This document shows, in pieces, positions 4,455-40,625 of a DNA stretch of 64,000 bases. Numbering within the stretch: position 1 is the first letter of the stretch; each line of letters begins with the position of its first letter. A model generated the notes under the pieces. The model was given only the letters and a program-made list of their open reading frames with translations. It was not told the origin of the DNA and searched no databases. Location of the stretch: positions 989,297 to 1,053,296 of the forward strand of contig CAWHDJ010000018.1 of NCBI GenBank assembly GCA_963827955.1. Reading direction: 5' to 3'. Source of the stretch: an uncultured delta proteobacterium. GTDB taxonomy: Bacteria > Myxococcota_A > Polyangia > Polyangiales > Polyangiaceae. The position numbers were made by a program, and so were the translations under genes.

Positions 4455-4706
4455 CGTGAGGTCGGTTCGGATTGTGGGAAATGCAGCGTCTCGCTCTCCG
4501 CCGTCCCGCTGAGCCAAGGGCAAAGCCCTGGCCGGCCGCTTCCTCGTCGCGCCCTTCCGGCTCTCGTGCGTCCGGTCTTCGGAGACGACGCGGCACGCAG
4601 GCGACCTGGCGCTTGATCGTTCCCTGCCGAGATCCCTTGCCGCCGCGCCGGCGCCGCGGGAACTCCCCCGACCATGAGCGCTCTCTTCCACCTCCGCGAG
4701 TAGCCC

Positions 4707-5957: not shown

Positions 5958-6072
5958 CGACTGCACGGGTGAGAGGGCGGCGGGGACTACCGGGAAGGGT
6001 AGCGCAAGCGAGGCCACGAACTCGCCGACTACGGTGTTGACGTGCGCTCCATGATGCACCGCCCTTGCGAGA

Positions 6073-8353
6073 TCAGTGTGCGGCATGGGAATGACCCTTC
6101 CGCGTGTGCTTGAGCTTGATGATCCGGAGTCGCGAGAGCGTCGCGGGGTCAAGCTTGAACCAGAGCGGACGACCATGGCCGCCGCGGTCGCTGGGCTTGA
6201 GCCAGCGCCGGGCGACCCAGTAGCGAACGGTCTCCAGCGAGACGTCGAGCTGTGCGGCGACGGCGCGCAACGAGTACAACCCGTCGGACCGCTGGGGAGG
6301 GGTCACCCACTTCTTCTTGACGTTGAGGTCTTCGAGTCGCGCGATTGTTGCGTCGTCGAGCTTGAACCAGGCGGTGGGCCCTGGACCGCTGCGCGCGCTG
6401 GGGACGAGCCAGCCCCGCGCGACCCAATAGTGCACGGCGCCTGCGCGAACCCCGAGGCGCTTGGCGACCCCTCGGAGAGAGTACAAGCCGTCGGAGCGCT
6501 GGTAGGGCGGAGTGCGCGGTACCGACTCAAGAGCGTGACGTCTCCGAACCCCGTTGACGGCCCCCTCTTGCCACTCGTTGCCGAAGCGACTGCGAAGCCC
6601 TTGACGGTTCAGTTCCTGAGCGATCTGCGCGTTCGTCTTCCCTTGCTTGATGAGGGATTGGATCAGCTCAACAAGTGCGCTCTCGCTCGTTGCATCTCTC
6701 GGAGGCCGCGCGCGTGGGACGGTGAGGTCGGTGACGGCGCCCGTGCGCCAGAGGACCTGGATGCGCGTCAACGGCTGCGGGACGTCGATCGGCGTCAGAG
6801 TGACATGCTGCACGAGCATGCGGAGGAGGTTCTTGCGGTCGGCATGCGTCGTCGTATCCGCGTCCCACACCTGCCGCAGGTCCTTGGCGAGCGCGAGAAT
6901 GCGGGTGCGGTCGGACGCCGAAAGGTCGAGCTTGTCCCGCTGACGCGCCTCCTCGTATTCACGCTCGACGGTATCCAGCTCTTGGAGCTTGGAGTTCCAC
7001 TCGTGCTCCAGGGTGCGCGCGACGACGCGGTTGTCAGGATCCACGGCCTTGTAGCGGCGCTCGGCCAGGCGCGCCTCGTACCGCGCGCGATCGAGGCGAA
7101 GCTTCCACTGCTTGTCGAGCTCCGCCGTCTGCCGCTCCGCCTGACGCACCACCTCCAGACCGAGCTCGATCTCGGGCACGTGCACCGTGTCCAAGAAGAG
7201 CTTGGTGACCGCCTCCTCGATGCGGGGCCCAGAGACCATCCAGCAGACCGGATGGCCGCCGCCGTACCTGAGCGGCGCGCGGCAGTCATAGCTGGGATCA
7301 GCATGGCGGCCGACGTAGCGGACGGTCATCTTGCGCCCGCATCGACCGCAGATCGCCAGGCCCTGCAACAGCGCGGAGCCTCTGCCGGGTGCACCGCGCT
7401 GGTCGGGAGCGCGGCGCGGCGCGTTGCTCTGCAACTTGCGCTGGTTCGCCATGAACTCCTCCCACGAGATGTAGGCCGGGTGGTGGTCGCGAATGCACAC
7501 CGTCCAATCGTCCTGCGCGCGCTTGCGGACGCCGCGGCGCACCTGCCCGTTGATCAGCATCCTGCGCGCCTCGTAGCGGCCGAAGGCGAAGGCGCCGGCG
7601 TAGATCGGGTTCTCCAAGACGCGCAGGACGAAGGCGAGGCGCGGAGCGTGCCAACAACGCTCCTGCGTCGTAGGATCGCGTCCCGGCATCTGAAGGCCGT
7701 GCGCCAAGAAGTAGCGCACCACGCCGCATGCACTTCCATTCAGGCGGAAGCGCTCGAAGAGGAGCCGGATCACGCGTTGAACGTGCTCGTCGGGATCGAA
7801 GCGAGGGGTTTCCTGACCCTCGTCCCAGATGTAGCCCGCCGCCGTCTTGAACCGCAGCGCGCCCCGGCGCGCCTTGCTCAACTTTCCGCCGTGCAGGCGC
7901 AGACGCAGCCAGGTCAACTCGACCTCGCTCATGGTGCCCTTGAGCCCCAGCAACAGCCGGTCATCCGGGTTGCGAGGGGTGAAGACCGACTGCTCGTCGA
8001 GCAGGATCACGTCGGCCAGTCCGCAGAGATCCAGCAGCCGGTACCAGTCCGCGGAGGAGCGTGCGAGGCGCGAAACCTCGAGCGCAAAGATGGCGCCGAC
8101 TCGCCCGTGGGCCGACGTCCTCTGCGAGGCGCTTGAAGCCGTCGCGCCGCTCCGTGCCCGCCGCGCTCTGCCCGAGGTCCTCGTCGATGATCTCAACGCG
8201 CTCCGCGGGCCAACCGAGCTCGATGGCGTGTTGCTTCAGAGCGTACTGGCGCGCGGTCGACTCGGGGTGATTGCGCACCTGCCGCGGGTCGGACTGGCGC
8301 GGGTAGACGACCGCTCGGCGCTCCAGGTGGGTCGACTGGATCTTGTCGTTCAT
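6073..8353 (-). pseudogene. large serine recombinase (integrase), split by a single-base frame discontinuity at about 8105-8115. Carries a tandemly duplicated C-terminal ~60-aa HTH-like module.
   Basis: N-terminus 'AVVYPRQSDPRQ...' gives the Y-x-R-x-S catalytic motif in the frame of ORF 7961..9049. 'VGAIFALEVSRLARS', the recombinase domain, the Zn ribbon 'CGRCGRKMTV...C' and a coiled-coil lie in the frame of ORF 6073..8196. The C-terminus contains 'QRSDGLYSLR.VA..L.V....V.YWVAR.WL.PS' twice. Confidence 0.8.
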
Positions 8354-8802
8354 CACCGGCCTCCTTGTGCGCGCCGGCCCGGACGACCTTGAGCACGAGC
8401 GTCGCCCATGCTCCCAATAGGTCGCGCCGCACGTCCGTCGGTAGCGCGCCCAGTCGAGGTGGATCGGGTCGATCGATCGGGTGCGGTTGCATCCACGGGT
8501 CCGCTCGGGGGCTTGAGGTTGCCTCGTGGAGACTCCTGCGGCGGACGGTGCTGCCGGTCCAGCATGTCGGCGACGGCATCCGCGAGCTCCACCAGTCCAC
8601 GCGCGGACAGCAGAACCTCGCGACCCCCGACCTGTGGCGGTGCCACAGGCGGGCCGCGGTCGGTCCACTCCTCGGGCAGCACGATCATCTCGCGCTTGGA
8701 CCCCTCGATCTGAACGTAGCGGCGCCCGTCCGGCGCGGTGTACGCGTGAAGCAGGACGAACCGGCGTCCTCGGAAAGGATGGATCGGCAGGGTCACCGTC
8801 AC
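8353..8802 (-). CDS. small hypothetical protein immediately upstream of the recombinase and translationally coupled to it (GTGA and ATGA overlaps). Possible recombination directionality factor or accessory protein.
   Basis: 149-aa ORF. The N-terminal 90 aa are protein-like ('MTVTLPIHPFRGRRFVLLHAYTAPDGRRYVQIEG...'). Its stop overlaps the recombinase ATG. Confidence 0.45.
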   Translation of the reverse strand: MTVTLPIHPFRGRRFVLLHAYTAPDGRRYVQIEGSKREMIVLPEEWTDRGPPVAPPQVGGREVLLSARGLVELADAVADMLDRQHRPPQESPRGNLKPPSGPVDATAPDRSTRSTSTGRATDGRAARPIGSMGDARAQGRPGRRAQGGR

Positions 8803-9476
8803 GAAGCGCGAGGACTCGGTGATGTCGGGTGCATTCTCCGACGTGCGTCTTCGTGTAGGCCGAGCACCAGCGCTTCCCGAGGTCGCCCGTCTTCATCGGA
8901 AACTGCCGGCGATAGCCGGGCTTGTCGCTCTCGCCGCCCGCGCGCTCGAGCCCGTACGGAGTCTCGAACAGGTACGCCGCTGTCGGGGTTTGGTCGCGGA
9001 GCATCTCGCCCTCGAACCCGCCCACCTTCCAACTGAAGTAGATGCGCACGCCGAACGCCGCGGCGATTCTGGCGGCAATAGTCTCGCGTGCAGGGCCAAT
9101 CCATCAGCGTCGAGCCCTCACGGCCGTCGACGTCGTGATGCCAGAGCTCGATGCGTTCCTGTGGAACGCCGAGCAGCAGCAGCAAGAGCAGCAGCGCGAG
9201 GGAGTCCTTGCCGCCGCTGAAGGCCACGATGATCACGTCATACGAGAACGGGTCGACCGCGGGCTTGCTCGGCGTCGGTGCGAAGGCGACGTGACTCGGT
9301 GCGAACGCGAAGCGCTGCCACGGAAGCGGAGGGGGCGCATCACGTGCGAGCGGGCGCGACGACCGCAGGGCGCGGTCGGAAGAGGCTTCTGCAGTCGCTG
9401 CTCGCAGAAGGGCCCCGAGCGCGGACATCCGGCCCTGGTTGGGGGCAACGGAGACGGGCGCATCGAGGGCCGTCAT
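8799..9476 (-). CDS. PAPS-reductase family PP-loop ATP-pyrophosphatase (DndC/CysH-like), paralog B. Frame discontinuity near 9060; the 3' end is uncertain.
   Basis: 'VIIVAFSGGKDSLALL' is a PP-loop. The protein continues in another frame as 'FGVRIYFSWKVGGFEGEM...GLERAGGESDKPGYRRQF...KRWCS' (the R-x-x-ES motif). The ATG at 9476 overlaps the stop of the upstream gene. Confidence 0.55.
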   Translation of the reverse strand: MTALDAPVSVAPNQGRMSALGALLRAATAEASSDRALRSSRPLARDAPPPLPWQRFAFAPSHVAFAPTPSKPAVDPFSYDVIIVAFSGGKDSLALLLLLLLLGVPQERIELWHHDVDGREGSTLMDWPCTRDYCRQNRRGVRRAHLLQLEGGRVRGRDAPRPNPDSGVPVRDSVRARARGRRERQARLSPAVSDEDGRPREALVLGLHEDARRRMHPTSPSPRAS

Positions 9477-10495
9477 GAAGCCTCCTCGCTCACATACGAA
9501 GTGGCCGGGAGCCAGTCGCACCCCGTTGCCTTCGTGGCGCGCTCTGCCCGGCCGCACACCGGACACGGCATGCGCCGAGGGCGGTAGGGGGTCTCGATGT
9601 AGACGGCCAAGGGCGGCGCGCGGTAGCTGCCGTCGGGGAGCGTCCTGAACCCCATGATGGACAACTTCTTCCCGGCCTTCGTCGGCGGCTTGTTCGCCTC
9701 GAGCGCGGCCGTGCGCGCGAAGTCCCGGGGCAGCTCCCGCGCGAACGTCTGCCAGTCGCCGCGCGAGCCGTACGGGCAGAAGGTGCACGCGCTCTTCCGG
9801 GGCACGGGGAAGCCGAGGCGCTCGATGAGCGCTTGGCCCCGGCAGCGACACAGGTTCCGCTCGATCAACGGGAAACGGTTGTGGCGTCGGGCTTGGCCGG
9901 GCCGCTGTGCGCGTCGCCCGCCGGCGTTGGGGTCGTACGCCGCCCGCCCTTCCTCCGCTGCGTCGAACCCCACCCAGACCTCCACGTCGAGGCCGGAGAA
10001 GCGGTCGTCCATCCACCGCTCGAACCGCTCCACCTTGCCGACGATGGTGCAAATGCGGTCGGGGCCCGAGACGGGGATCTGGCGGCGCTCCTCCAGCCAG
10101 GCAAAGAGGGAGCGGCTTTCCCGCACGGGGTAGCTCGTGGTGTCGAGCGTCAGGAACTCGATGCCCTGGGCGGCGCAGAGCGGCTCGACGATCTCCCGGA
10201 TGTGGCTGTATGTGCCCGGCCACTCGCCCGGGTCGCGGCGCGCGGCATCGCCCACGTCGACGAACACGCAGACGTCGGGCGGCTCTCTCTGCTCGATGGC
10301 GTCGAGCAGCATCGCGAAGCTGTCGAGGCCCCCACCGTAGGAAAGCACACGGGGGCGCCGTGGTGCTGGCGCGCTCGCCGCTCGCAGCAGAGCCCCGAGC
10401 GCGGACGGGGAGTGCTGGCCTTCCGCGCTCGCCGCCCGCAACAGAGCGCCGAGCGCGGACGGCTGTGCGCGCGCGGCGCCAGGCACGGCGCTCAT
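9473..10495 (-). CDS. PAPS-reductase family PP-loop protein, paralog A. Its N-terminus carries two copies of the 'SALGALLRAASA' peptide.
   Basis: 'VLSYGGGLDSFAMLL' is a PP-loop. Several Cys motifs are present (CRCRG, CTFCPY, CPVCG). The ATG at 10495 overlaps the methyltransferase stop (ATGA). Confidence 0.6.
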   Translation of the reverse strand: MSAVPGAARAQPSALGALLRAASAEGQHSPSALGALLRAASAPAPRRPRVLSYGGGLDSFAMLLDAIEQREPPDVCVFVDVGDAARRDPGEWPGTYSHIREIVEPLCAAQGIEFLTLDTTSYPVRESRSLFAWLEERRQIPVSGPDRICTIVGKVERFERWMDDRFSGLDVEVWVGFDAAEEGRAAYDPNAGGRRAQRPGQARRHNRFPLIERNLCRCRGQALIERLGFPVPRKSACTFCPYGSRGDWQTFARELPRDFARTAALEANKPPTKAGKKLSIMGFRTLPDGSYRAPPLAVYIETPYRPRRMPCPVCGRAERATKATGCDWLPATSYVSEEAS

Positions 10496-11265
10496 GCCGC
10501 ACTGCTCACACGCGGGCGGATCGCGCTCCGCGCCGGTGGCGTCAGGAGCCGGGCCTCTACCGCCACGCGGCACCAGTGGGGGACGATGTCCACGGCGATG
10601 CAGCGCAGGCCCATCGCCCGGCAGACCGTCAGCTCCGGCCCCGTGCCGAGATACGGCACGACGACGACGTCCCCCCGCCGGAGCTTCGCCCTCTCGCGGA
10701 ACACCCACTCGACGAGCGCTACCGGCTTCTGCGTCGGTCCGAGGTGCGCCACGCCCGTCTCGCTTGCGCGTGCGACGCCGCGCCAGAGATGCGTGAAGCG
10801 ACGGATGGGGGTGCGGAGGTTGGTCCACGCCAACTCACCGTCACCGCCGTCGTTGCTGCCCGTTTCGGCGCGCTTGTCCCAGAAGAGCCACCCGCGCTGG
10901 TCGGGGAGCCGGCTCGCATAGTGGTTGGCGCCCCAGAGCACGATCCGAGGGAAGTGGAGAAGGTGCGACGGGTCGAACGGACGATCGTTGCCAGCCATCG
11001 GAGGCCAATCGTTCGCGCGCGGCCTGCCTCGGCCGCCGACCAGCCGGCCCCCGCGCCCGCGCCGAGCGCCGTCGAACCGCTGGCGGGGATCGAACGGCGG
11101 GTCCGCATGGACCAGCGCCACGTCCTCGGGCCGGAGGCCGAGGGCGCGGAGCCGTCGCGGAACGACCTCGCGGCAGTCGCCGGCGTGCACTTCGATGTCG
11201 CCGTCGTTGTAGACGAGCCCCGCCTCGGCCCGCGCAGCGCGAAGCCGCGCGGCGAGGCCGGACAC
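10492..11265 (-). CDS. beta-class N6-adenine/N4-cytosine DNA methyltransferase (CcrM/M.PvuII-like arrangement)
   Basis: Motif order is 'VALVHADPPFD' (DPPY/F), then 'GPTQKPVALVEWV' (HPTQKP-like), then 'VVVPYLGTGPELTVCRAMG' (FxGxG-like). A GTG start with an AAGGTGG RBS lies just after the TAA of the upstream gene. Confidence 0.75.
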   Translation of the reverse strand: MSGLAARLRAARAEAGLVYNDGDIEVHAGDCREVVPRRLRALGLRPEDVALVHADPPFDPRQRFDGARRGRGGRLVGGRGRPRANDWPPMAGNDRPFDPSHLLHFPRIVLWGANHYASRLPDQRGWLFWDKRAETGSNDGGDGELAWTNLRTPIRRFTHLWRGVARASETGVAHLGPTQKPVALVEWVFRERAKLRRGDVVVVPYLGTGPELTVCRAMGLRCIAVDIVPHWCRVAVEARLLTPPARSAIRPRVSSAA

Positions 11266-11281
11266 GCGCCCGGCGCCCACC

Positions 11282-12404
11282 TTACGCCTTGCCCTTCTTC
11301 GCGAGCATCGCGAGCAGCTCCTCGACGATCGGGCGGCTCTCGGCGATCCATTGCACCAGGCTGCGCCGCATCTCACGCGTACCGCCCTTCTCGAGCCGCA
11401 CGCGGGTGTCTTCGACGTCGAGCGACATTTCGCCCGAATTCACGGGCCACGGCGCGGCCGGCAGCTTGGCGAGGAGTGCGCGAGCACGTCCTACGGCGTC
11501 CTTCGACGTCGCCGCCGCGGGCGTCGCCTTGTTGCTGGCCATGGACGCGTACCGCAGGCCCAGGGCCAGGGCGAGGCGGCCATTGAAGCTCAGGTCGCCG
11601 CTCGGGATGCCGGCTTGGTCGAGCATCTGCTCCGCAGACTGCTCGCTGCCCCGCCGCTTCCAGAGCTCCTCCGCGTCGTCCCGCGCCTTCCACCGTTTGC
11701 GAAACCCCGCAGCCCATTCTTCGTGCGTGCGAACGGACCGTGCCGCGTTCGCTTGGATGGCCGGCACCGCCTCGCCGGCGCGGTGCAGCCGCACCCGCAG
11801 CGCCCCCGCGAGACGAGCGCGGAGGTTGAGCCCTTCGCGCGCCACGCCGGCCTCGTCGAGGATCGCGTGCAGCCGCTCTTCCAGCACCGGGCACTGCCCG
11901 TCGACCTCGGGCTCGTCGGGGTAGTCTGGCGCCGGCATCGCCGGCATCGCCGGCGTCGCTGGCGTCGCCGGGGGCGCCGCGCTCTCTTTGGCTGCATGCA
12001 GCAGCGCCGAGAGCGGCGACGGAGCGGCCCCACCGACGGCCACATCCGGCGCCGGCGCCGCGGCGCGCTCAAGGGGGAGCGCCGCGGACGAGAGGACGGT
12101 CCCGCCTTCACCCCGCGGGCAGAGAGCAGCCTCGGCCGGCGTGAGGCTCTCGCTCTCCGGCCGGAGCTCGATCTCGTGGGCGTCATCGAGCGAGAGGAGC
12201 GCGCCGTGGATCGCGTCGAGGTCGAAGCCCTTGGCGATCAGCGCGCGCACCACGTCCGGGATCCGCACGACGAGCGAACGGGGATCCGCCTGGCGCCGCA
12301 GCTCGGCGAGGACGGGGAGCCGGGTTGGGCGTGCCCAGGTCACGGCCGGAGGCCCTCGTGGTCGAGATCCACGGCGTTCGCGATGAGAGGGCGGCGGCGG
12401 TTCA
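11282..12404 (-). CDS. hypothetical protein with an internal 'SPLSALLHAAKESAAP' motif. Apparent frame discontinuity near its 5' end; a likely ATG overlaps the stop of the giant gene.
   Basis: Protein-like from 'VTWARPTRLPVLAELRRQ...'. An alternative ATG-initiated frame ('MNRRRPLIANAVDLDHEGLRP') overlaps the TGA of the upstream gene. Confidence 0.45.
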
Positions 12405-15400
12405 TTTCGGGACGACCGTGCAGATCGTGGCCGGCTCACCCTGGCTGTTGACCCCTTCGCGCACGATGGTCGCGACGACCTCGGTCTTGACCTTGCCCCC
12501 CTTCGTCTTGACCTTGATCCTCTCGCCGGGCGTGGGGGCAGGTCCCTCGACCGCGATCCCCCATTTGTTGTAGCCGAGGCTCTTGTACTCCGCGAAGGGT
12601 CGCTCCACGGGCGTAGACGTGGCCCTCCCTGCTGCCGCAGAACCGGCCCGGCCCGGAGCGAGGTCCCCGAGGCCCATGGCGTCGAGCAGCGCGTTGACCA
12701 CGTGCGCCTGCCCGCGGACGGTGTAGGTCATGCCGACCCGTTTGGCGGAACCCTCCGGGTCGAAGATGACGCGGCCGTCGGGCGTCTGAAGCTCGTAACG
12801 GCCCAGCACCATCTGCATCGAGTTGCCGGGCAGCGCGCGGGCGGCGTCCTTGAAGACATCGTCGGCGAACACCATGTCGGACACGACTCGGACGTGCTCT
12901 GCGCCGGCTCGCGCGGGCGCCGGCGCCGGCCGCGGCACGAGGTCGCCCATGCCGAGCGCCTCCATCGTCGCGGCGAGCCCCTTGCCGTAGATCCAGTGAG
13001 AGACCCCGGATTGACCAGGAAACTCGACGCCGCGCATCCGGTCAAACTCGATGTCGCCCTGCGGGGTCACGACGGAGAACGCACCCAGCTCCAGCTCCTT
13101 GACCGTGTTGCCCGGCATGTCGCGAAGGATGCGGAGGAACTGCGTGTCGCCGTACAGCTTCTCGCCGCGGCGCTGGACGTGCTTCCTGAACTCGTCGGTG
13201 GGCTCCTCGGCGCGCCGCGGCAGGCTGTTCTCGTCGGGCTCCTCGAGACGCGGCGCCGGGGGCGTGCCCCCCACGTTGACCGGGGGCGTGGCGGGCCGGC
13301 GCACGATGACCGAGGGTTGGACGCCCGCGGCGGGCGCCGTAGAGCGGTCTACCCGGATGGTCGCGATGAAGGCGTCGAGCGCCGCTCTCACGTCTGCATC
13401 GCTCTTGCCTTGTGCGACAGCGGTCTTCGCGACGGCGGCGATCCGAGGCGTGTCCAGCAGGTTGACCTGCACGCCTTGCAGCGCGGCTTGAGCGAGGCGG
13501 TTCGCGCGCCTCTCCTCCGCCGCGGAGAGCGCCGTGCGCCGCGCGCCGCCCGCCTCCCCCCGCTCGGGTGCGGTAGGCGCGGTCGGCGCCGCCGAGATGA
13601 CCTCGTGGTGCGGATTGCGGAGGCGCGTGATGACCTCGTGGAGCGCGTCCCTGAACAGGTCGGTCGAGACGGCGCCGGGGGAGGTGACGGCCGCCTCCAA
13701 CTGTTTGATCGCCGCCTCGACGTCGGGGACCACCAGCGTGTTGCCCTCCATCGCCCCCGGAAGGAAACGCGCGACCGCCGCACGCTGCACGGTGCTCAGT
13801 CCCTCCAGCCTGGTCCCCGCGCCCGCACGTACCGCCGCAGAAGCCGCGGGCTCAGGCCCCCCACCAACGCGTGCCGCGACAGGGGCAGCGGGCGCCGAGC
13901 GCCGAGCGGCGGCGCTGGGTCCCGTCTCGTCCGCGTCCGTCTCGCCGGCCTCCTCCCTGCCGGTCTCCGCCTCGCCGGTCTCCGCCCCGCCGGTCTCCGC
14001 CTCGCCGGCCTCCGCTCCGCCAGCCTCCGCCTCGCCGGCCTCGGCTCCGTCGGTCTCCGCCTCGCCGGCCTCCGCTCCGCCGACCTCAACCTCGCCAGCG
14101 TCCTTCTTCTTCTTCGCCTTCAGCAAGGCAGCCCTGGCAGCCTTCTGCTCGGCCGTCGCGCCGGAGAGCAGATCGGACGGCAAGCCCAGGGCCCACCAGT
14201 ACCGGGCGCACGCCAACAGCGCGCCGTAGGAAGCATCCGAGATCGGCGCGAGCGCCAAGAACTCTTCGTAGCCGGCCCGGGTGGGCGGGAGGATCGCGTC
14301 GAGCCGCTGTTTCACGCCGACGGTGAGCACGCCGCCGCGAACACCGGGAACCTCGAGCTTGTCGGCGTCGAGGGTGAAGCGGTCTTGGAGGTCGTTTAGA
14401 TGGGACGTGATGTCGGCGCCGTAGCGGGCCCACATCTTCGTGACCCACTCGTCGGTCGCATCCACCCAGTTCAGCTCCCGCAGGACCTTCTCGGTGGTCG
14501 TGGAGAGATGACGCGCGAGCTTGGGCAGGATCTCCCCCCGCATGACCCCGTCCATGCGCACCTCATCGTCCGCCGGCCAGTCGCTCGCGTCCGTGATGCG
14601 GTGCTCGGGGAGCAGGTGCAGCTCGCCGATCTGGGCGAGCCTGACGACGCGCCACTCCACCTGACCGACCGACCGAGCGCCGATGGTGTAGCCGTCGCGG
14701 ACCCTGCCGTACTCGTCGAAATTGAGCACGCGGTGGTCGCGATCGTCAGGGCTCTTGGTGCGCAGTCCCTCGTAGAGAGGCGCGACGGCCTTCTCGTAGA
14801 CCTTGACCAGCTCGGAGGTCCCGCTGGGGGTCTCCCTGTTCTCGGTCTTCGACGTGGGCACGAAGACCAGCATCGTGTGGTCGCGCGCCGCTTGGGCCCA
14901 CTCTCCCCAGGGCCATACCTTGGGGTCGACCCGGGAGACGTCGGCCAGGCGCAGCTCGCCTTCGGCCCGGAGGCGATTGGCCCTCCCAAGCTGCTGCTCG
15001 GCTTCTCGCGGTGCGTTGCCGCATCGGTCGAATTGTGGCGTTCCGGCTTCCGGTTGGGCCTCGGCCCATTCGGCGGGCAGGTTGAGCAGCTCCCCGACCT
15101 TGAGCGGCTTCCACGCCGGCTCGTGCTTCTTCTTCCTCTTCCGCGGGTTCACGCGGTCGAGCTCCTCCTCCCAGTTGTCGCGGTGGTAGGCCCCGAGCTT
15201 TCTCGCGATCGACACCTTGCTGTCCCCGGGCCTTACCCGGTACAGCGCTTGCTCTTCCGTCTTCTTCTCCTGCTGCTGCCTGGTGCCCTGGGCCTCGATG
15301 CCGGGCCGGTCCGCGGCGCGTGCCATGCTGAAGAAGAACCCCGCCGTGCGGAGCGTCGCCGAAGCATTCGCAGCGGTCTTCGCGTCCTGCTCGGCCTTTC

Positions 15401-28419: not shown

Positions 28420-28535
28420 GGCTTCCCCGAGCGTGCGCCGCCGCTCGATGCGCGCGCAAGGCGCTTACCCGCCTATGGATTTCACTTATCAGCCAGGATC
28501 CGTGGAAGTTCCTAGACCCGTTGTGGGATGATCCC
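28420..28535 (-). promoter_or_regulatory. conserved ~115-bp upstream element, copy 1. AT-rich invariant core TGATAAGTGAAATCCATAG in the gene orientation. Ends at the ATG of the 1,742-aa gene.
   Basis: Aligns over its full length with copies at 33713..33828 and 36254..36367. It is the only AT-rich 19-mer in this 70% GC region. Confidence 0.6.
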
Positions 28536-29855: not shown

Positions 29856-29891
29856 CGCTGATCTCTCCCAGCCGAGGGCCGCGCGCCCGCG

Positions 29892-31598
29892 TCAGGCAGC
29901 GGCCTGCGAGGCAATCATGCGGAGATCGTCGGGGTGGTGCTTGGCCCAGTCCTCGAAACCCATATAGGGATCGGTGAGGTTGTTTTCCCGCATCCAGGCC
30001 GTCACCGGCTTGCCTGCGCCCGCGCGCCAGAAACGCTGAATCTCCGCCAGCTCCGCCTCGCGCTGCTCCGGGGTCTGGTTCGGGTTGGCCGCCAGGTGTC
30101 CGGCGCGAAGCTGGGCGAAGACAACGTCGTCGGGGCCCATGCTCCGCACGGTGCGCGGACCCTCGTGGGCGGCGGGCGGCGCCGCGGCCCTGGTCGCGCT
30201 GGCCGGAGCCGGCTCCGCCGCGGCCGTCGCGGGCCCCCTCACGCTCGGCGGCTTGGCCGTCCGCTTCGAGGGGGGCTTCGCCGCGGGCTTCTTTGCCGCC
30301 GGCTTCGTCGCCGCCGGCTTCTTCGCGGCGGGCTTCTTCGCGGCCGGGGGCTTCTTCGCGGCGGGCTTCTTCGCCGCCGGCTTCTTCGCGGCGGGCTTCT
30401 TCGCCGCCGGCTTCTTCGCGGCGGGCTTCTTCGCGGCGGGCTTCTTCGCCGCCGGTGCCCCGGGCTTCTTGGACGCCTTGGCATGCTTCTCGGCCAGCGC
30501 CGTGAGACGGGCGCGATCGTCGCCGGAGACCGAGATCACGTCCACCGCCATCGCGCCGGACTTCGCCGCCTCGAGCTCGGTGCGCTTCTCGGCCGCGACT
30601 TGGGTCGCGCGCTCCTTGGTGAACGGGCCGTACACCGTCAGCACGTTGCCATCCGATTTGACCTCGACGAACGAGCGCGCCTTCGACGCCTTCGAGGTCT
30701 TCGCCGCTTTGTTCGCCGTCCTCGCCGTCTTCTTCGCGGCCTTCCGCGCAGCCGCGGTGTTGGACTTCGGGGGCCTGCCACCCTTGCCGGCGGCGTAGAC
30801 GCCCCTGTGCCCCGGCGCACCGTCGTTGTCGAACCGCGCCTTGGCCTCGGCCAGGGCTGCCTTGACTGCCGCCAGCGGCGTGCCGGGCGCGCGCTTGTCG
30901 AGGATGCCCTGGATCCTCTCCCTCGACACGCTTGCCGGATGGCGGATCAGGACTTCCTCGCCCGAGCCTCCAACCTGGAACGAGCCCGAGACGTAGGTGC
31001 TCCTGCTGGCCGGCTTGCGCGTGCGCCGGCCAGAGGGCGCGCCCGCCGATCGCGGTGCAGCCGCTGACCCGCCGGCGGGGACCCCCTTGGCGACGTGGCG
31101 TCTGTGGATGTGCTCGAGGAACTCCGCGGTCGCGTTGGCGGACAGCATGCTCGTCTCCGTCTCGTACGAGCTCGGCCCCGAGGCGTGGCCCGTCCACACC
31201 ACTTCGTTGCCCGCAATGGCCCTCGCCTTCCTCCCGCTCTCGTGCACCATGAGCTCGTCGCCGTTTTCCATCCTGACGAGGAAGGAGTCGCGGTGGCCGC
31301 TCGAGCTACTCCCGCCGTTCGTGGCCGCCGAGGCGGGGTGAGCGGCGCGGCGATGGGCTGCCGCTGGGCGCGAGGGGTGTGCGCCCGCATGGCGGCTCGT
31401 GCGGGTCCCGGAGGGGGCACCGCCCGTCGTGGTGCGATGACCGCTCGGCGGAGTCTTCTCCACGCTCCCCGACGTGGTGCCGACACGATGAACCGTGGCG
31501 GTGTGCTTGCCCTCGGCCAGGTCCACGTTGACCGTCACGGCGAAGCTGTTCTCGTTGCGGTTCCGCGTGGTGATCTGCTTGTGCTTGGTGATCGACAT
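29892..31598 (-). CDS. hypothetical protein with a long (PAAKK)n Lys/Ala/Pro repeat, histone H1-like
   Basis: 568-aa ORF. The ATG at 31598 (MSITKHKQITTR...) is protein-like. The central region is 'KKPAAKKPAAKKPAAKK...' for about 25 repeats. Confidence 0.6.
   Translation of the reverse strand: MSITKHKQITTRNRNENSFAVTVNVDLAEGKHTATVHRVGTTSGSVEKTPPSGHRTTTGGAPSGTRTSRHAGAHPSRPAAAHRRAAHPASAATNGGSSSSGHRDSFLVRMENGDELMVHESGRKARAIAGNEVVWTGHASGPSSYETETSMLSANATAEFLEHIHRRHVAKGVPAGGSAAAPRSAGAPSGRRTRKPASRSTYVSGSFQVGGSGEEVLIRHPASVSRERIQGILDKRAPGTPLAAVKAALAEAKARFDNDGAPGHRGVYAAGKGGRPPKSNTAAARKAAKKTARTANKAAKTSKASKARSFVEVKSDGNVLTVYGPFTKERATQVAAEKRTELEAAKSGAMAVDVISVSGDDRARLTALAEKHAKASKKPGAPAAKKPAAKKPAAKKPAAKKPAAKKPAAKKPAAKKPPAAKKPAAKKPAATKPAAKKPAAKPPSKRTAKPPSVRGPATAAAEPAPASATRAAAPPAAHEGPRTVRSMGPDDVVFAQLRAGHLAANPNQTPEQREAELAEIQRFWRAGAGKPVTAWMRENNLTDPYMGFEDWAKHHPDDLRMIASQAAA
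30275..30455. repeat. 15-nt tandem repeat (gcgggcttcttcgcc)n encoding the AAKKP repeats on the minus strand
   Basis: Read directly from the sequence. Confidence 0.7.
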
Positions 31599-31625
31599 GG
31601 TGGTTACCTCGGGCGCGTAGCGGTC

Positions 31626-33630
31626 TCATGCGAAGACTCGGTAAAGGCTGTAGAGCAGCGCGGCGGACACCAGAGGGACCGCCGGCGAGCCGCCCGACGT
31701 CGTCTCCTCGGGCTCCGCGCCGCGAGGCCCGTGCGGTTCTGCGGGTTCGGCGAGCGTGACCTCGAGATCCGCGCCGTAGAAGTAGCGGAGGATGCCGTTC
31801 CACCGCCAACCCCGAGTGGCGAGCGCGTCGGCCCCGTTCTGCGAGAGGCAGCCGCGGTTACGCCTGTTCCGCGGGTCGGCGACCGGGCTCGGGCAGGGGT
31901 GGACGGCGCTGCCCACCAGCCCCTCGTTGTAGGTCACGAATCGCTCGGTGGGGTACTTCGCGCTGACGATGCCTCGCAAGGCCCCGGGAGCCCAGACCGC
32001 GCCCGCGACATGGCTCCCGAGGATGAGCGCCCCCTTCCAGAGGGCGACGCCGCCGCGCGTCTCGGCGGCGGCACGGACCGCCAACGGCCTTGGGGGCGAG
32101 AGGGCGACCTGGAAGCGCTGGCTGTTCGGGATGGGGTGCGCCGCCGTGCCGAGCGTGGGATCCGCGGCGAGCGCCTGCTGGACGTAGGTGCGGGCCGCGA
32201 TCGCCACCGCCTTGAGCGCATCGAGGCGCCGCGAAGGGCTCTCGCCGGCTACGACGAGGGCGACGTAGTCTTCGAGGTCCAGCTCGCCGAGGCCGGTGAC
32301 GACCGCGCGCGCACGGAGCTGCACGTGCTCCAGCGCGGGCTCCTGCGCGCCGCTCGACGGGTGCGCGCCGCCGGACGGGTACTCCAGCCAACCGAGGAAC
32401 GCGGGTTCGTCGACGCGGTGGGTGCGCTCGGCCCAGGCGTCGCCGCTGTTGGCCTCGATCGTCCGGAGGGTTCCGGCGCCGTCGGGCGGCGCGCTCACGC
32501 GCCCGATGTGCCCGCTCCCGCCATGCACGGGATTCCTCCCCGTTGCGTCTCCACACGGCGCCGTCGCCGACCTTCGCGCGATAGCCGTCGCCGCGCGGAT
32601 GGAATCTCCCGCTGCGCACGACGTCGGCGACGCGCCCGGTGTAGGCGTGCGGAAGTCGCTCGCCGGGCCGGAGCGCCTGGCGCCCGGCCCAACAGAACCC
32701 CCAGGCGCACCAGTCGCTGCCCTTGGCCCCCCCGTACTTGGCGATCCCCGGCCCCCAGTTGCTGCCCGCGGGCTCCTCATGGACGCCGGCGTCGAGCTCG
32801 CCGCGCGCGACCGCGAGCGCGCGCTCGCCGAGCGTCGTGTCCGCATGGCCCGAGGCCGGTGCTTCGGCGCGCGGTGCGCCAGGCGTCTGCGCTGACCCAC
32901 GGGGCTGCGCGCCCGGTGGAACGCGAGGCACCGCGCGCGGCGGTGCATCGAGGGCGAGCAGATCCCGCAGCTCCTCGCACGCCTCGGGGAGGACGTGCTG
33001 GGCCTGGTAGATGTGCCCGGCCTTGTCGTGGCCCCCGGCCGAGTAGATCGCGAGGTGGCCGCGCCAACCGTCGCCCGTTCCGCCCGGCGCCTCGCGATGC
33101 ACCCGGATCTCGTGGTCGGGCGGCTCCGGGAGGAGGTCGAGACCCGTGGCCAGTTCCGCCATCGCGCGCGTCGAGGTGTAGGCCGGCTCCGTCTTGATGT
33201 AGCTGTGCGTGATGACCGTCGTGACCTTGCCGGCGCGCGCATCGCGCACGATCCCCTTCACGTAGTCCCGTTGCCATGCGTGCGGGGGATAGTCCCCGTG
33301 CATGCCGTCGCAGAGGACGAGCGCGAACGCGGGCGCTCCCGCGAGTCGCAGTGCGCGAACGCGCTGGCAGCCGGCGGAGAACCCGATGAGCGCCGCGAGC
33401 CAGAGCGGGCGCCCCACCTGCGCTTCGGCCCACGCGAGGATCTCCTGCCATGTCTCGGTGGCGTAGGGGTTGAGGCCGACGACGCAGGGACGCGGGCCGA
33501 GCGCCGCGAGCACCGCCCCAGGAACACCGCTCGGTGTTTCCGTGTCGCGCTGGCCGCGCTTGTCAGGCATCGGCGACGCGAAGCACACGAGCGCGCCCCC
33601 GGTCCCGCGCTGAACGAGCGCGAGGGCCAT
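31626..33630 (-). pseudogene. multidomain cell-wall hydrolase: N-terminal domain of unknown function, CHAP-like cysteine peptidase, then a SpoIID/LytB domain. Frame discontinuity at about 32520-32530.
   Basis: 'GSDWCAWGFCWA' and 'GHIGRVSAPPDGAGTLRTIEANSGD' match the CHAP Cys and His regions. 'DALKAVAIAARTY...GCLSQNGA...RYFYGADL' is the SpoIID signature. The two halves lie in different frames. Confidence 0.65.
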
Positions 33631-33712
33631 CACGCCACCCGCTCGGCGACGACGTTGACCGCGGACGCGAGCGATGCTCCGCTCGCACCGCTCGCTGTGG
33701 GCGAGAAAGGCA

Positions 33713-33828
33713 CGGCTTCCCCGAGCCTGCGCCGCGGTCCGTGGTGCTCGCAAGCGCCTTACCGTCTATGGATTTCACTTATCAGCGCGGAGCCGTGGAA
33801 GATCCAACGGCGGCCGTGGGATGTTCCT
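33713..33828 (-). promoter_or_regulatory. conserved ~115-bp upstream element, copy 2, about 85 nt 5' of the hydrolase ATG
   Basis: Aligned by eye with copies 1 and 3. Confidence 0.6.
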
Positions 33829-33861
33829 CGGTGCGCCGCAGCAGGTCCGCGCCGAGCGTGG

Positions 33862-36252
33862 TCATCCGGACACAGAAACAGGTGCGTGTGACACGCCGAG
33901 CCGCTCCGCCTCGTCCGCCTCGATCGGTCCGCACTCCACAACGTCGTAGACACGCCCGCAGCCCACGCAGGCGAGCTGGCGGCTCACGATCGACGCGCGC
34001 GCCCCTCCCATCCGGCGCTCCAGCTCCGCATCGGTCTCCCCGTTCAGCCGGCCGGTGAGGACGTCGCAGCCGCACGACGCGCAGACCGGACCGCCGGCAC
34101 CGAAGCGGAAGGCGAGCCGGCCACGCTCCAGCGCCTCGGGATCCAGGTACGCCAGCTCCTCCGCCTGGATCGCGAAGTGATACGCCCGCGCCTCCGCCTT
34201 GGAGATGCCGCTCACCCGCGCCGCGCCCCTCCGGGCCGCGTCGGTCACCCTCACCGGAGGGATGATCCTACGCGGTGGCGGGGCGGGAAGGGCGCTCCAG
34301 TAGCGCTTGACGACCCTCAGCGCCTCCTCGGCGCGCTCCTCGTCACCCAGCAGCGCCCGGGTGATGGCGGAGCGGACCCGCTTCGTCAGCACGAGGTCCT
34401 CCAGCCAGTGCTCGTCGGCGCTCCGCATGGCCTCGGCGACTGCGAACGAATCCTTGCCGAGCGCCGGGTAGATGGCGTCCAGGAGCGCGCGCGTCGGCGT
34501 CGGCGCCACGGCTCGACCCTCCGCCCGCGCGTACTCGGCCTCCCGGAGAGGGGCGCGCGCACGGAGTAGGTTGTCGTAGCGCTTGCGGAGGTCCTTCGTC
34601 GCGCGAGGGATCCTGCCCAGGCGCTGAGCGGCAAGGGTGGCGGCGACCAGCTCGTCGAAGAGCGCCCGCACCTCGGGCGTGTTGAGGTCCCACGCGAAGA
34701 CGTCGGCGTCGTGGAGCGTCGAGAACGCCCGAACCGCTACCCCGCTCGGCACATGGCTGACCTGGAAGGGAAAGCCCGCGGCTTCCTGCCGCTCGAGGTT
34801 CTGGTGGACGACGATGTCGCCGTGCCGCGCGAACACGTCCACGTCGACCGACCGCATCACGTCGGTTCGCCAAATCGGTGCCTTACCGACCACGGGCGCT
34901 GTCTCGGGGCGCTCCTCGGCGTGGCCTCCCTCGACGTGCAGACCGCGGTCGATGGCGTTCGCAGCGACGAAGAGCTCCTCGCTGACCCGCCCCTCCGCCT
35001 CCGCGGCGACGTTCCGCAGATGGACTGTGGCAGCGACCCGGGCATCATGCGCCGTCTGGCCGGGCACGTCGGGCGTCCGCTCGATCGCCACGCCCTCTTT
35101 CCGCAGGGCATCCGCGATCTTCGTCTCGACGCTCACAACTCGATCCGGCGGCCACAACGAGGCGAAGGTCGACGCGCGTCGAATCAGGAATTGGGCGATC
35201 TGCTGCTTCTCGACCTGAGACACGGGAGGCGCTGGCCGGGGCTGCGGAGGCCCCGCGCCGTACTTCGCCACCATCCGCTTGCGGTCCCACTCCTCGGCGC
35301 GCGCGACGAAGGCGGGAAGGTCAGTCGCCGGGACGCGGATGCCGCCGATGCCCAGGCGACGCTCCGCGCCGTTGCCGTCCGGCTTTCCCCACACGTCGAT
35401 GTCGCGCGGGTTCATCTCGTCGACCGTGAGGCGCGTGATCCTGCCCTCGAACTCCTGCGTCCCGTGACGGATCACCTTGCCGCGGCGCTCCCGTGTGTCC
35501 TCGCTCCAGCGCACCCGCGTGCCGACGTCGGGCCACACCATGTACCCGCCGACGCTCCCGAGGTAGCTGAACTCCTCCCGCAGTTGCGCCCTCGCCGCGG
35601 CCTCACGCGTCGGGTTCGGGACCTCCCCTCGCGCACGCGCCTGCTCGTCGAGCCAGTGGAGGCGCTGGCCGATGTTCATTCGTTCGCCGCGCTTTTCGCC
35701 GAACGGCATCGTGAGCGTCAGGCCCGCGTTCCTCCGCACTTCGCTGTCGAGCCAGTGCAGCGGCTCTGTATAGTCCTTGCCGGCGAGGATGATGACGTCG
35801 GCGGCCTCATGGCCGAAGTCGCGAAGCAACTGCTTGCGGACGCGCTCCCCCCAGTCCTTCCGCGCTGCCGGGCTGAGGGCCCTCATGGAGCGGTTGTAGG
35901 TTGCGATCTTCTCCGTGGTCGGGATGACCCCGTGCTTCGCGGAGAGGATGCGGATGTGGTCCTCCCTGGTGACGGCGCGCGCGTAGGCGAGGCTCTTCTC
36001 GAAGAGCACCGACGCGGAGTAAAGCTCGGCGGCGGGGATCCGCTTCCCGTGCGTTTTGACCTTCGACGCGCTGCACGCGATGAGGACGATGAGAGGACGG
36101 CGCCGCTCGGCCTTGGCGGCGTCGGTCGCTGCTCGGAGCAGCGCGGCGAGCGCACCGGCGGAGCCCCTCGCCGCTTGGAGGAGCGCAGCGAGCCCACCGG
36201 CGGGGCCCGGTGCGGCCGCTGCCCGAAGTCTCGCAGCGGGGTCCGTGAGCAT
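33862..36252 (-). CDS. hypothetical 797-aa protein. N-terminal domain resembles YaaA/DUF328 (peroxide-stress/DNA-binding family). C-terminal Zn-ribbon. N-terminus carries three 'LAALLRAA' repeats.
   Basis: 'PLIVLIACSASKVKTHG...ILSAKHGVIPTTEKIATYNRSM' parallels the YaaA pattern 'LILISPAKTL...MLSGLYGVLRPLD..PYRLEM' (inference). 'CASCGCDV...CVGCGRVYD' is a Zn ribbon. The ATG at 36252 abuts copy 3 of the upstream element. Confidence 0.55.
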   Translation of the reverse strand: MLTDPAARLRAAAAPGPAGGLAALLQAARGSAGALAALLRAATDAAKAERRRPLIVLIACSASKVKTHGKRIPAAELYSASVLFEKSLAYARAVTREDHIRILSAKHGVIPTTEKIATYNRSMRALSPAARKDWGERVRKQLLRDFGHEAADVIILAGKDYTEPLHWLDSEVRRNAGLTLTMPFGEKRGERMNIGQRLHWLDEQARARGEVPNPTREAAARAQLREEFSYLGSVGGYMVWPDVGTRVRWSEDTRERRGKVIRHGTQEFEGRITRLTVDEMNPRDIDVWGKPDGNGAERRLGIGGIRVPATDLPAFVARAEEWDRKRMVAKYGAGPPQPRPAPPVSQVEKQQIAQFLIRRASTFASLWPPDRVVSVETKIADALRKEGVAIERTPDVPGQTAHDARVAATVHLRNVAAEAEGRVSEELFVAANAIDRGLHVEGGHAEERPETAPVVGKAPIWRTDVMRSVDVDVFARHGDIVVHQNLERQEAAGFPFQVSHVPSGVAVRAFSTLHDADVFAWDLNTPEVRALFDELVAATLAAQRLGRIPRATKDLRKRYDNLLRARAPLREAEYARAEGRAVAPTPTRALLDAIYPALGKDSFAVAEAMRSADEHWLEDLVLTKRVRSAITRALLGDEERAEEALRVVKRYWSALPAPPPRRIIPPVRVTDAARRGAARVSGISKAEARAYHFAIQAEELAYLDPEALERGRLAFRFGAGGPVCASCGCDVLTGRLNGETDAELERRMGGARASIVSRQLACVGCGRVYDVVECGPIEADEAERLGVSHAPVSVSG

Positions 36253-36253
36253 C

Positions 36254-36367
36254 GGGGCTCCCCGAGCCTGCACTGCGGTCCGCGATGCCCGCAAGCGCCT
36301 TGCCGCCCATGGATTTCACTTATCACCGCGCCCCGGTGGAACATCCAGGGCCGGGCCGTGGATGATC
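36254..36367 (-). promoter_or_regulatory. conserved ~115-bp upstream element, copy 3. Ends at the ATG of the 810-aa gene.
   Basis: Aligned by eye with copies 1 and 2. Confidence 0.6.
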
Positions 36368-36582
36368 CGACACGCGCGGCGGCGGCGCATGCCCCGCTGC
36401 GCCTACCCGAGGTTCCTGGGGCGCCTCGGCGGCCTCGCCCGAAGGCTGGCGACCCGCCTCCGGCGTGGACGGCGCCGGTAACCTGCGAGCGCGGGGCTGA
36501 AGAACCGCGAGTGGCTTGCCGACATGGCATCGGCACCCAACCAACTCGCTCTTGACTCGGGTCGGGTAGTCTCAGAAGTCTC

Positions 36583-38066: not shown

Positions 38067-38237
38067 ATGGAGTCACCGGCCGATCTCGGCATCGGCTTCT
38101 CGGGCGACAGCAACCTGTGGGGGTGGCTCGACCACCGGCTCTTCGCACCAGGGGCTCCCGTACCGCCAGCTCAACCCAGCCACCATGGCGGAGGAAGCCT
38201 CGTCACTGTACCGTCGGGGTTGCCTTCGATGCGCGTG

Positions 38238-39359: not shown

Positions 39360-39425
39360 GCCACCGTGTTGGATCCGGACTTTCCCGCTACACGATGCCG
39401 TTTACATCGGCTACGAGCAGCAAAC

Positions 39426-40593: not shown

Positions 40594-40625
40594 GCGGGCA
40601 CCCGACTCGGATACCCTGCGCGCCG

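Follow-up and report, generated by a model that had tools for sequence, protein, structure and literature searches.

The "polyvalent proteins", which invading DNA brings along with it, have their archetype in the methylase-SNF2 dyad, and DarB, a head protein of phage P1, protects incoming DNA in cis (Iyer et al. 2017, PMC5512222). Modification with 7-deazaguanines serves phages as protection from restriction (PMC10164549, PMC6884629, PMC10516641), and DpdC, which converts preQ0-DNA into ADG-DNA, is part of a bacterial restriction-modification (R-M) system (PMC10164549); its Pfam domain is DUF6884 (10.1101/2025.02.24.639861), and the motifs CxxxK and LSAxxG have been proposed as a base-flipping active site (PMC11701544). 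The locus compared here with these systems is a gene cassette in 64,000 nucleotides (the whole stretch analysed, hereafter "the window") from an uncultured delta proteobacterium (Polyangiaceae; GCA_963827955.1, contig CAWHDJ010000018.1, positions 989,297-1,053,296, forward strand); coordinates are positions in the window. The cassette is best explained, with a probability of roughly 0.55, as the decayed anti-restriction and DNA-hypermodification toolbox of a mobile element (a "DNA-entry toolbox").

Genes were called from a listing of open reading frames (ORFs), a codon-usage caller and a six-frame Viterbi segmentation, and the three agreed on strand: from 6073 to ~36.3 kb coding sequence was entirely on the minus strand, as an earlier note on this DNA, concerned with a block at 6073-36367, had stated. 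The cassette spanned at least 2.8 kb to at least 36.4 kb, with a cassette-related fragment at 38 kb. Related cassettes were found first from two partial matches of its 1,742-aa protein, then by searches with its PP-loop proteins PPa and PAPS447, and were present in eight independent metagenomic contigs (L001, L002, L003, L109, L111, L112, L113 and L114, the last being the same contig as L105-L108). Eight of the window proteins bore one to three copies of a short peptide, here called the tag. The cassette genes were:

2767..3144, minus strand: geneB, 125 aa, the leftmost gene assigned to the cassette, tag KLAALLEAA
3191..3835, minus strand: geneA, 214 aa, a codon-usage call between geneB and the 3' half of PPb, assigned by position only
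3858..4425, minus strand: 3' half of PPb, 56% identical to residues 164-377 of the PPb of L002
8852..9476, minus strand: 5' half of PPb, with an SGGKDS PP-loop, ending in ...RWCSAYTK, tag MSALGALLRAA (tblastn with the PPb of L002)
9473..10495, minus strand: PPa, PP-loop ATP-pyrophosphatase with eight invariant Cys and two N-terminal tags (phrog_424)
10492..11265, minus strand: beta-class N6/N4 DNA methyltransferase (PHROG DNA methyltransferase, E=9e-11; N6_N4_Mtase below the Pfam cut-off)
11282..12439, minus strand: p385, function unknown, a codon-usage call, internal tag PLSALLHAA
12402..23242, minus strand: giant polyvalent protein, ~3,613 aa, 10,841 nt (Pfam, third-codon-position G+C (GC3) and frame analysis)
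23191..28419, minus strand: 1,742-aa protein, N-terminal tag RLAALLRDA, a mosaic, its modules being found fused into giants in related cassettes
28512..29855, minus strand: PAPS447, divergent PP-loop paralogue (DGMGVDS) with two N-terminal tags (phrog_424, E=3e-25)
29892..31598, minus strand: H1-like lysine-rich (PAAKK)n protein, untagged, 11 copies of a 15-nt repeat (HC2 and Extensin sub-threshold)
31626..33630, minus strand: cell-wall hydrolase, SpoIID (E=8e-8) and a possible CHAP-like Cys/His region
33862..36252, minus strand: DpdC-type DUF6884 protein, 796 aa, three N-terminal tags (DUF6884, E=4.5e-28; PDC-M57A, E=2e-25)

Judged by sequence, the cassettes probably belong to mobile elements that uncultivated high-GC bacteria harbour, and the family has no close relative in cultured phages or plasmids: PPa was at most 29% identical to proteins of cultured phages and plasmids, and its best match among 50,697 sequenced phages was 27% identical. 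The conserved core consists of a DarB-like methylase-SNF2 giant, other giant mosaics, an untagged H1-like, putatively DNA-coating protein and peptidoglycan hydrolases. A variable set of DNA- or nucleotide-modifying enzymes surrounds it and comprises, in the window, three PP-loop ATP-pyrophosphatases, the beta-class methylase and the DpdC-type enzyme, and, in relatives, also DpdA, C5-methylases and NUDIX. In the relatives the genes were found in shuffled order and in differing subsets: PPa, PPb, PAPS447, SpoIID or GH25 hydrolases, Phage_L5_gp82, H1-like and DUF6884 proteins, together with C5- or N6-methylases, NUDIX, methylase-SNF2 giants and other giants, one of which carried Serpin and Peptidase_C39 domains.

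The domains of the giant place it in the known DarB-like, polyvalent class. An NPPY adenine methylase (NPPY at residue 1293, Eco57I/N6_Mtase) was followed in one polypeptide by an SNF2 ATPase (SNF2-rel_dom, Helicase_C), with helix-turn-helix (HTH)-like regions sub-threshold only; the ~3,600-aa protein of the earlier note therefore has the domains ascribed to it, but its reading frame was broken once, at 17405-17409. The two halves matched phage giant-protein profiles colinearly (phrog_11801, E ~1e-70; phrog_1685; phrog_10089, "DarB-like antirestriction"), and the same region was ~24% identical to plasmid and phage giants. The 1,742-aa protein, previously called an orphan, exists as an ORF and had three database matches including itself, the other two partial, but it is no orphan, since it contained segments that matched parts of the L001, L002 and L107 giants at 63-70% identity. 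Segments of this protein and of the window's giant were fused differently in the giants of relatives, and domain shuffling of this sort has been described for polyvalent proteins (PMC5512222). As in the DarB-type systems, cell-wall hydrolases lay nearby; unlike them, the cassette giant sits among separate enzymes (PP-loop, DpdC-type, NUDIX, DpdA) that share a tag, has no adjoining packaging or conjugation genes and is frameshifted in the window. The terms PP-loop and YaaA were absent from the main text of PMC5512222. Two repeats were observed within these genes: a 15-nt repeat, present 10 times, from which the acidic (GEAET/GGAEA)n tract in the C-terminal part of the giant is translated (13898-14122), and a 63-nt tandem duplication at 95% identity in the 1,742-aa gene (23825-23950).

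The identities proposed earlier for the smaller proteins were largely borne out. The beta-class methyltransferase had DPPF at residue 55, ahead of its S-adenosylmethionine motif, and an N-terminal tag, GLAARLRAA; the H1-like protein had homologues in L001, L002, L107 and L112. The "CHAP+SpoIID" hydrolase stood for SpoIID but not for CHAP, which was sub-threshold only (E=0.0055, in the intact homologue of L002). The YaaA-like protein of ~800 aa is the DUF6884 protein, in whose translation CSASK and LSAKHG fit the CxxxK and LSAxxG motifs of DpdC; its C-terminal parts were separate genes beside DpdA in L109, and a scan of viral contigs with this protein alone gave nothing. The C-terminal part of p385 was 58% identical to a gene of L113, and geneB was 44% identical to the gene just downstream of the methylase-SNF2 giant in L106 and 49% identical to a gene of L113 that also adjoins a giant; geneA had no Pfam, PHROG or NCBIfam match.

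The presence of three PP-loop genes of the phosphoadenosine phosphosulfate (PAPS) reductase type, as the earlier note held, was supported by the phrog_424 match of PAPS447 and by an intact PPb homologue (PAPS_reduct, E=1e-11), but the fourth, truncated paralogue that it placed at 3855-4454 is in fact the 3' half of PPb. The PPa family, for which there is no Pfam model, included 480 homologues with E<=1e-10 and showed a (nearly) invariant SYGGGLDS motif and eight invariant Cys (alignment A2). PAPS447 was 26% identical to PPa and had 104 homologues, the closest at 87%. The AlphaFold model of PPa was that of a PP-loop ATP-pyrophosphatase about equally near to the [Fe-S] tRNA thiolases (TtuA, NcsA), the adenosine phosphosulfate (APS)/PAPS reductases, TilS and LarE. 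Both hallmarks of the superfamily were present, a PP-loop of the SGGxDS type and a Rossmann-like fold as in TtuA, PAPS reductase and TilS. A role of PPa as a QueC analogue was rejected (QueC ranked only 24th in the fold search), and a match of PPb to "PptA" in the PDB (E=0.0017) was set aside, no literature having been found for interpreting it.

In two relatives PPa was translationally coupled to a tagged gene for DpdA, a TGT-like DNA transglycosylase, which overlapped its start by 4 nt, and in a phage-like contig (L005) PPa was fused to NUDIX:

L109:9066-10969: DpdA-PPa locus
L111:9078-10981: DpdA-PPa locus
L005:10001-11326: PPa-NUDIX locus

This coupling and the fusion suggest a role for PPa in base hypermodification. 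The terms PP-loop, PAPS and phosphoadenosine were absent from the two phage deazaguanine papers searched. Free-standing PPa homologues (55-65% identical, several of them on IMG/VR viral contigs) began at the PP-loop and were untagged.

Encapsulin cargo-loading peptides are short shell-targeting peptides. The cassette tag is a motif of 8-10 residues resembling [LM]x[AGS]xL[RQHE]xA, for example SALGALLRAA, and was present in three copies in the DUF6884 protein, two in PAPS447, two in PPa, and also in the 1,742-aa protein, p385, the methylase, PPb and geneB. It mostly lay in the first 60 residues, with a Pro/Ala-rich linker after it; the AlphaFold model of PPa showed both tags as short helices, predicted with moderate confidence, and behind them a confidently predicted core. 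When the six-frame translation of the 64 kb was searched with the tag expression, all 11 matches fell in cassette frames between 2976 and 36192, and there were none in other frames, in the nested element described below, or at 36.4-64 kb. Across the cassette family almost every enzyme bore one to five copies, the H1-like protein being untagged, and each relative had its own dialect, at N- or C-termini:

L002, L003, L112: LDGLARLAA
L105, L107: AGFALL or GGFASL, also C-terminal
L001: GLSAMLARPAPP (GLSAMLARP), five in tandem
L109, L111: SFAxxAA, DpdA included
L113: (S/N)FADLAAxL, e.g. FADLAAHL

Like the encapsulin peptides and the capsid-targeting sequence of phage T4 (10 residues, a precedent for N-terminal targeting tags; PMC9026906), the cassette tag is about 10 residues long, is common to unrelated proteins of one element, is terminal with a flexible linker and is sometimes repeated. 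Unlike them, it may be internal or C-terminal, with no evident protease site, and no shell or capsid gene was identified for it. Its L-G-x-x-L-R pattern loosely recalls the encapsulin peptides, a likeness to be taken as a lead only. In L002 (3677-5977) and L003 (7847-10045) the gene junctions themselves were repeated at 64-93% DNA identity, the repeat unit running from the last codons of one gene past its stop into the beginning of the following gene and including the tag; such units could also aid the exchange of cassettes by recombination.

A course of events can be outlined from these parts. The tag would dock the enzymes to a common partner, which may be the H1-like DNA coat, a giant, or a capsid or transfer complex, and the docked enzymes would act on, or travel with, the DNA of the element as it enters a new cell, where methylation and other modification of the entering DNA would blunt restriction. 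Methylation by the methylase-SNF2 giant may be processive, as has been suggested for DarB (PMC5512222); the PP-loop enzymes would act by adenylation of the base or backbone, followed by transfer of N or S; the DpdC-type domain would alter a base after flipping it; and the hydrolases would breach the cell wall. A more specific and clearly tentative proposal is that the tag is a modular docking or cargo-loading tag that recruits exchangeable DNA-modifying enzymes to the DNA or transfer particle of the element and so disguises this DNA chemically at entry, the PP-loop family working with DpdA- and DpdC-type enzymes and possibly making a new 7-deazaguanine or thiolated base.

The mobile-element origin of the DNA-modification or anti-restriction module, which the earlier note had already suggested, is supported by the DarB-like PHROG matches, the DpdC domain, the DpdA-PPa coupling and a relative located inside a 128.6-kb provirus predicted by IMG/VR, itself within a 684-kb contig. 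This last relative raises another explanation, that the cassette is an ejection-protein or late-accessory module of an ordinary tailed prophage whose virion genes lie outside the window or have been deleted. The Phage_L5_gp82 domains and the GH25 and SpoIID lysins of relatives would fit such a module, as would a collagen-repeat protein upstream of the L001 cassette with weak matches to tail-fibre PHROGs, the fact that DarB-type giants are head proteins in P1, and the T4 precedent for N-terminal targeting tags. We nevertheless consider it unlikely. None of the ~50 ORFs of the window had a Pfam or PHROG match to capsid (major capsid protein included), portal, terminase, tail or conjugation proteins, in agreement with the earlier note, although divergent proteins could escape without a structure-based search; 50 kb walked along the IMG/VR contig held no virion genes, but a ParA, a small resolvase and a Ser/Thr kinase instead; and no close relative was found among the sequenced phages. 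A plasmid-like hint came from the L114 cassette, which had a ParA and a small resolvase at one end. For the leading region of a conjugative element, neither relaxase or type IV secretion system (T4SS) genes nor Frpo-like folding of single-stranded DNA were found in the window.

A host defence island, that is, a new Dpd-, BREX-, Dnd- or DISARM-like R-M system in which the modification enzymes mark self and the SNF2 giant polices foreign DNA, is slightly less credible still. PADLOC matched PPa to SspD (1e-10), PPb to BrxP (4e-13) and DndC (1e-5), the SNF2 part to DrmD, DpdE and ZorD, and the DUF6884 protein to PDC-M57A; DpdC does belong to a bacterial R-M system, and the base composition of the block equals that of the host. 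The PP-loop proteins are indeed of the same PP-loop/PAPS-reductase superfamily as DndC, SspD and BrxP (Dnd, Ssp and BREX type 4), and are Cys-rich, compatible with an Fe-S or Zn site. However, these weak profile matches covered the common domain only (for DndC, TIGR03183 scored 19.8 bits against a cut-off of 290), and the partners DndA/B/D/E, SspA/B/C and BrxC/L/X were absent from the window by PADLOC and NCBIfam, which gave domain-level echoes only of Ssp, Dnd, BREX, DISARM and Dpd; for BREX and DISARM these were limited to BrxP-domain and DrmD/DrmA helicase-domain matches, with neither the BrxC, BrxL and PglX set nor the DrmA, DrmB and DrmC set present. The absence of a known defence-system signature thus held, and no complete system, nuclease or effector partner was detected by Pfam or PADLOC. 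The best matches of the giant were DarB-type phage and plasmid giants, neither peptidoglycan hydrolases nor an H1-like coat is known to play a part in defence systems, relatives of PPa and PAPS447 occurred on viral contigs and in PHROG families, and shuffled order, element-specific dialects and insertions of IS and LSR (large serine recombinase) elements are typical of mobile-element cargo. With the 7-deazaguanine systems (PMC10164549, PMC6884629, PMC10516641) the cassettes share a DpdC-type DUF6884 protein with both motifs, an SNF2 helicase and, in two relatives, DpdA; unlike them, the window lacks DpdA, DpdB, genes for preQ0 synthesis (no FolE, QueD, QueE or QueC) and the restriction genes dpdD-K by Pfam and PADLOC, with generic SNF2 similarity to DpdE only.

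Tn4451/TnpX-like transposons and SCC-type cassettes are known small LSR elements. The recombinase with which the earlier note's block begins belongs, on the evidence of its junctions, to a separate element of this ordinary kind, 4.4 kb long, that jumped into a cassette gene, and is not the boundary of the cassette:

4426..8851: nested LSR element, ~4,426 bp, junction cores AA at 4426-4427 and 8850-8851
4707..5957, plus strand: CPA2-family cation/proton antiporter, cargo (Na_H_Exchanger, E=4e-49; TIGR00932, E=6e-42)
6073..8355, minus strand: LSR, 759 aa when repaired, with Resolvase, Recombinase, Zn_ribbon_recom and two MerR-type HTH domains
8353..8802, minus strand: DUF5372-like small protein, partner of the LSR (weak Pfam match)

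The insertion splits the third PAPS-reductase-type gene, PPb, exactly between codons. An intact 377-aa PPb homologue (L002:6949-8082) aligned by tblastn to two separate sites of the window: residues 10-195 matched 9461-8852, ending in ...GKRWCSAYTK, and residues 164-377 matched 3858-4512, true homology starting at (K)IMVAGAALRNQ, where the 5' half stops. At the insertion point (marked ^) intact PPb genes (L002, L105) read TACxxxGAA(A/G)^ATCATGG, and the junctions of the window read TACACGAAG^ACGCACG on the right and GTCAAA^ATCATGG on the left; since the flanks rejoin into an intact PPb, an insertion of ~4,426 bp with a 2-nt AA core is deduced. The inner arms, when joined, gave a reconstructed attP, GGTGCATCATGAAGCAAACGTC-AA-GACGCACGTCGGAGAATGCACC, with terminal GGTGCAT/ATGCACC and a dyad symmetry of 13/24 (null 6.95 +/- 2.3, P=0.011). 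No dyad symmetry was present in the attL, attR or attB combinations, the reconstructed attB being ...GGCCTACACG-AA-AATCATGGTCGCC...; a symmetric join of the inner arms with asymmetric others is the pattern expected, at the sequence level, of a serine-recombinase attP.

The identification of a large serine recombinase was correct: Resolvase, Recombinase and Zn-ribbon domains were present with the catalytic Ser. Its ORF is not intact, an extra C cutting off the first 81 residues, so that the N-terminal catalytic segment RAVVYPRQS sits in another frame (upstream). The protein was 74% identical to the intact 762-aa LSR of L003, where LSR and DUF5372 occupied the identical nucleotide position of the PPb gene with a different cargo (CLC/CrcB, CBS, enolase, MFS); PPb was uninterrupted in six other relatives. 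At least 466 relatives of the LSR were found in metagenomes (38-63% identity), mostly on contigs of 2.5-7 kb, and in the sample of neighbourhoods kept (81 loci, L024-L103 being Joint Genome Institute metagenome contigs) DUF5372 was upstream of the LSR in 18/81 and a PP-loop gene adjoined it in 0/81. The DUF5372-LSR pair thus appears from its neighbourhoods to be an autonomous module, of which DUF5372 may be a directionality or accessory factor. With the Tn4451/TnpX and SCC types the nested element has in common its LSR, a single cargo gene, insertion at a specific site with a 2-nt core, and the dyad symmetry of its reconstructed attP; unlike them, it has a C-terminal pair of MerR-type HTH domains, a DUF5372 partner, a frameshifted LSR and, as target, a gene of another mobile cassette. 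That this LSR integrates the whole ~30-kb block and marks its left end, as first supposed from its place at the left edge of that interval and as the L003 LSR, coming after the same PP-loop genes and before chromosomal-looking genes, might suggest, is very improbable, since the att junctions enclose only the 4.4-kb DUF5372-LSR-antiporter segment between halves of one gene broken between adjacent codons, a dyad-symmetric attP results when its inner arms are joined, PPb is uninterrupted in six relatives, cassette genes and tag continue to the left, to at least 2767, the many LSR relatives lie elsewhere, and the LSR gene is itself frameshifted.

Several further observations were made on such insertions. 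The DUF5372-LSR pair (window 6073-8802) was very common in soil metagenomes, on short contigs as if multicopy or strain-variable. The cargo of the nested element was an ion transporter both in the window and in L003, where (14711-20880) a CLC/CrcB fusion, DUF190, two CBS proteins, enolase and MFS resembled a fluoride-resistance set; this interpretation was dropped, as no fluoride riboswitch or other Rfam family was found in the window. In L002 (14454-16767) an IS21-type pair (transposase phrog_310, E=3e-34, and AAA_22 helper) interrupted the cassette, a second case of a smaller element nested in the cassette family.

Apart from the splitting of the PP-loop gene by this unrelated LSR element, the window's copy appears decayed through four frameshifts, called from the continuity of domains and from GC3 frame plots, with the intact homologues of related contigs as reference. 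The four genes had single-base changes of frame:

8109-8111, minus strand: LSR, extra C in a CCC run
~9067, minus strand: 5' half of PPb
17405-17409, minus strand: giant, G5 run, between helicase motifs I and II
~32532, minus strand: SpoIID hydrolase

The equivalent of the giant was one continuous ORF in L001, L106 and L111, and the two frames of the hydrolase mapped onto a single ORF in L002, L003 and L112. In the tidy plus-strand gene series at 36.5-62 kb no comparable frame breaks were seen, a difference that favours real decay, with the caveat that detection is weaker there. The overlapping minus-strand ORFs at 1237..2346 and 1814..2818, with a codon-usage switch of frame near 2066, may represent one more frameshifted gene, the fifth, where the cassette ends on the left; a homologue search gave none.

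The cassette is not one long coupled operon, as had been proposed: overlaps of 3-4 nt were found at only 3/15 listed junctions (methylase/PPa, PPa/PPb, DUF5372/LSR), the others having gaps of 16-231 nt or overlaps of 38-52 nt, and a ~125-nt element was repeated three times (repeat family D3, alignment A1):

36259..36383, minus strand: operator/promoter element copy 1, upstream of the DUF6884 gene
33718..33842, minus strand: copy 2, upstream of the hydrolase gene
28425..28549, minus strand: copy 3, upstream of the 1,742-aa gene

These copies would split the block into at least three transcription units. Each contains an imperfect dyad, GGAnCATCC...GGATnTTCC, followed by TGATAAGT, and looks like a dyad operator plus TGATAAGT; the 18-nt core GATAAGTGAAATCCATRG (also given as GATAAGTGAAATCCATAG) had 3 matches against 0 expected. 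The start codon came directly after the element in two copies and ~90 nt further in the case of the hydrolase. Judged by its sequence, the cassette is expressed from at least three copies of one operator/promoter. A scan of 28.3-38.3 kb for the sigma-70 consensus gave no site, and Frpo-like single-stranded promoters were rejected, the three elements folding no better than shuffles as single-stranded DNA (z -0.3 to -1.2).

Five points weigh against the toolbox explanation. First, the frameshifts could be assembly errors, two of the four being in G/C homopolymers and the source maybe a long-read metagenome-assembled genome. Second, neither the window nor the ~10 kb around the relatives' cassettes yielded a gene for capsid, portal, terminase, tail, relaxase or T4SS, apart from the L001 collagen-repeat protein and the Phage_L5_gp82 domains, and the vehicle, hence "delivery", is therefore putative. 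Third, the cassette and its flanks are alike in base composition (~70% G+C throughout the window, without a step in composition at the block), tRNA genes and att sites are absent, and neither a boundary nor an att site or empty site could be defined for the large cassette; the "integrative element" of the earlier note is not supported. Fourth, the similarity of the tag at the DNA level could derive partly from recombination between cassette junctions. Fifth, the window has neither DpdA (tblastn with the DpdA of L109 and L111; Pfam) nor preQ0-synthesis genes, which leaves the DpdC-type domain without an evident substrate in this copy.

To the right of the DUF6884 gene and of a divergent 289-aa gene (36583-37452) there was one more cassette-related fragment:

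37934..38080, minus strand: truncated duplicate of the hydrolase gene, first 45 codons, 80% identical in DNA and 81% in protein to 33496-33642

The homology stopped after 45 residues. The 147-bp direct repeat (33496-33642 and 37934-38080) includes the hydrolase start, its copies lie 4.4 kb apart, and it looks like a rearrangement scar; cassette-related DNA therefore extends to at least 38.1 kb. Beyond it were plus-strand paralogues of unknown function (39366-40007 and 40020-41660, 48% identity over 95 aa). The ORFs tested at 36.5-48.4 kb (not examined by structure) had no Pfam or PHROG match except a sigma-70-type protein (41688-43040) and a weak repressor-like match (46604-47071); a sigma factor beside the L111 cassette was unrelated to the sigma genes of the window. 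Close to where the first Ser/Thr kinase gene begins there was a 48-nt inverted repeat (50957-51115, 90% complementary, 63-nt spacer). A 36-nt motif (CATTTTGACGGACACT..., 54962-54997), which this region has in common with the DNA ahead of the sigma-factor gene at 55.0-55.3 kb, may be a regulatory site common to kinase and sigma-factor genes. The genes at 58.5-59.9 kb and 61.0-62.3 kb were paralogous, likewise without known function, on the plus strand, and shared several DNA repeats of 40-86 nt. The window had no match to any Rfam family, whether at gathering threshold or at E<=1.

Three features appear to be new: that polyvalent giants are combined with NUDIX, three PP-loop enzymes and enzymes of the DpdC and DpdA types; the tag specific to each element, judged without a literature search on it; and the repeated operator/promoter. 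The window's copy is damaged and without DpdA, and the interest therefore lies in the family rather than in the locus. For annotation, a recombinase adjoining a block need not be its integrase; here it is the parasite of a parasite. The DpdA-PPa coupling predicts that a widespread and highly conserved PP-loop family without a Pfam model acts in DNA base hypermodification. If the tag is a docking signal, it would provide a sequence handle on the anti-defence and DNA-modification cargo of uncultivated mobile elements, and a candidate tool for loading foreign proteins. The cassettes would then, if the proposal holds, constitute a plug-and-play anti-restriction system, whose tag dialects would co-evolve with a putative receptor.

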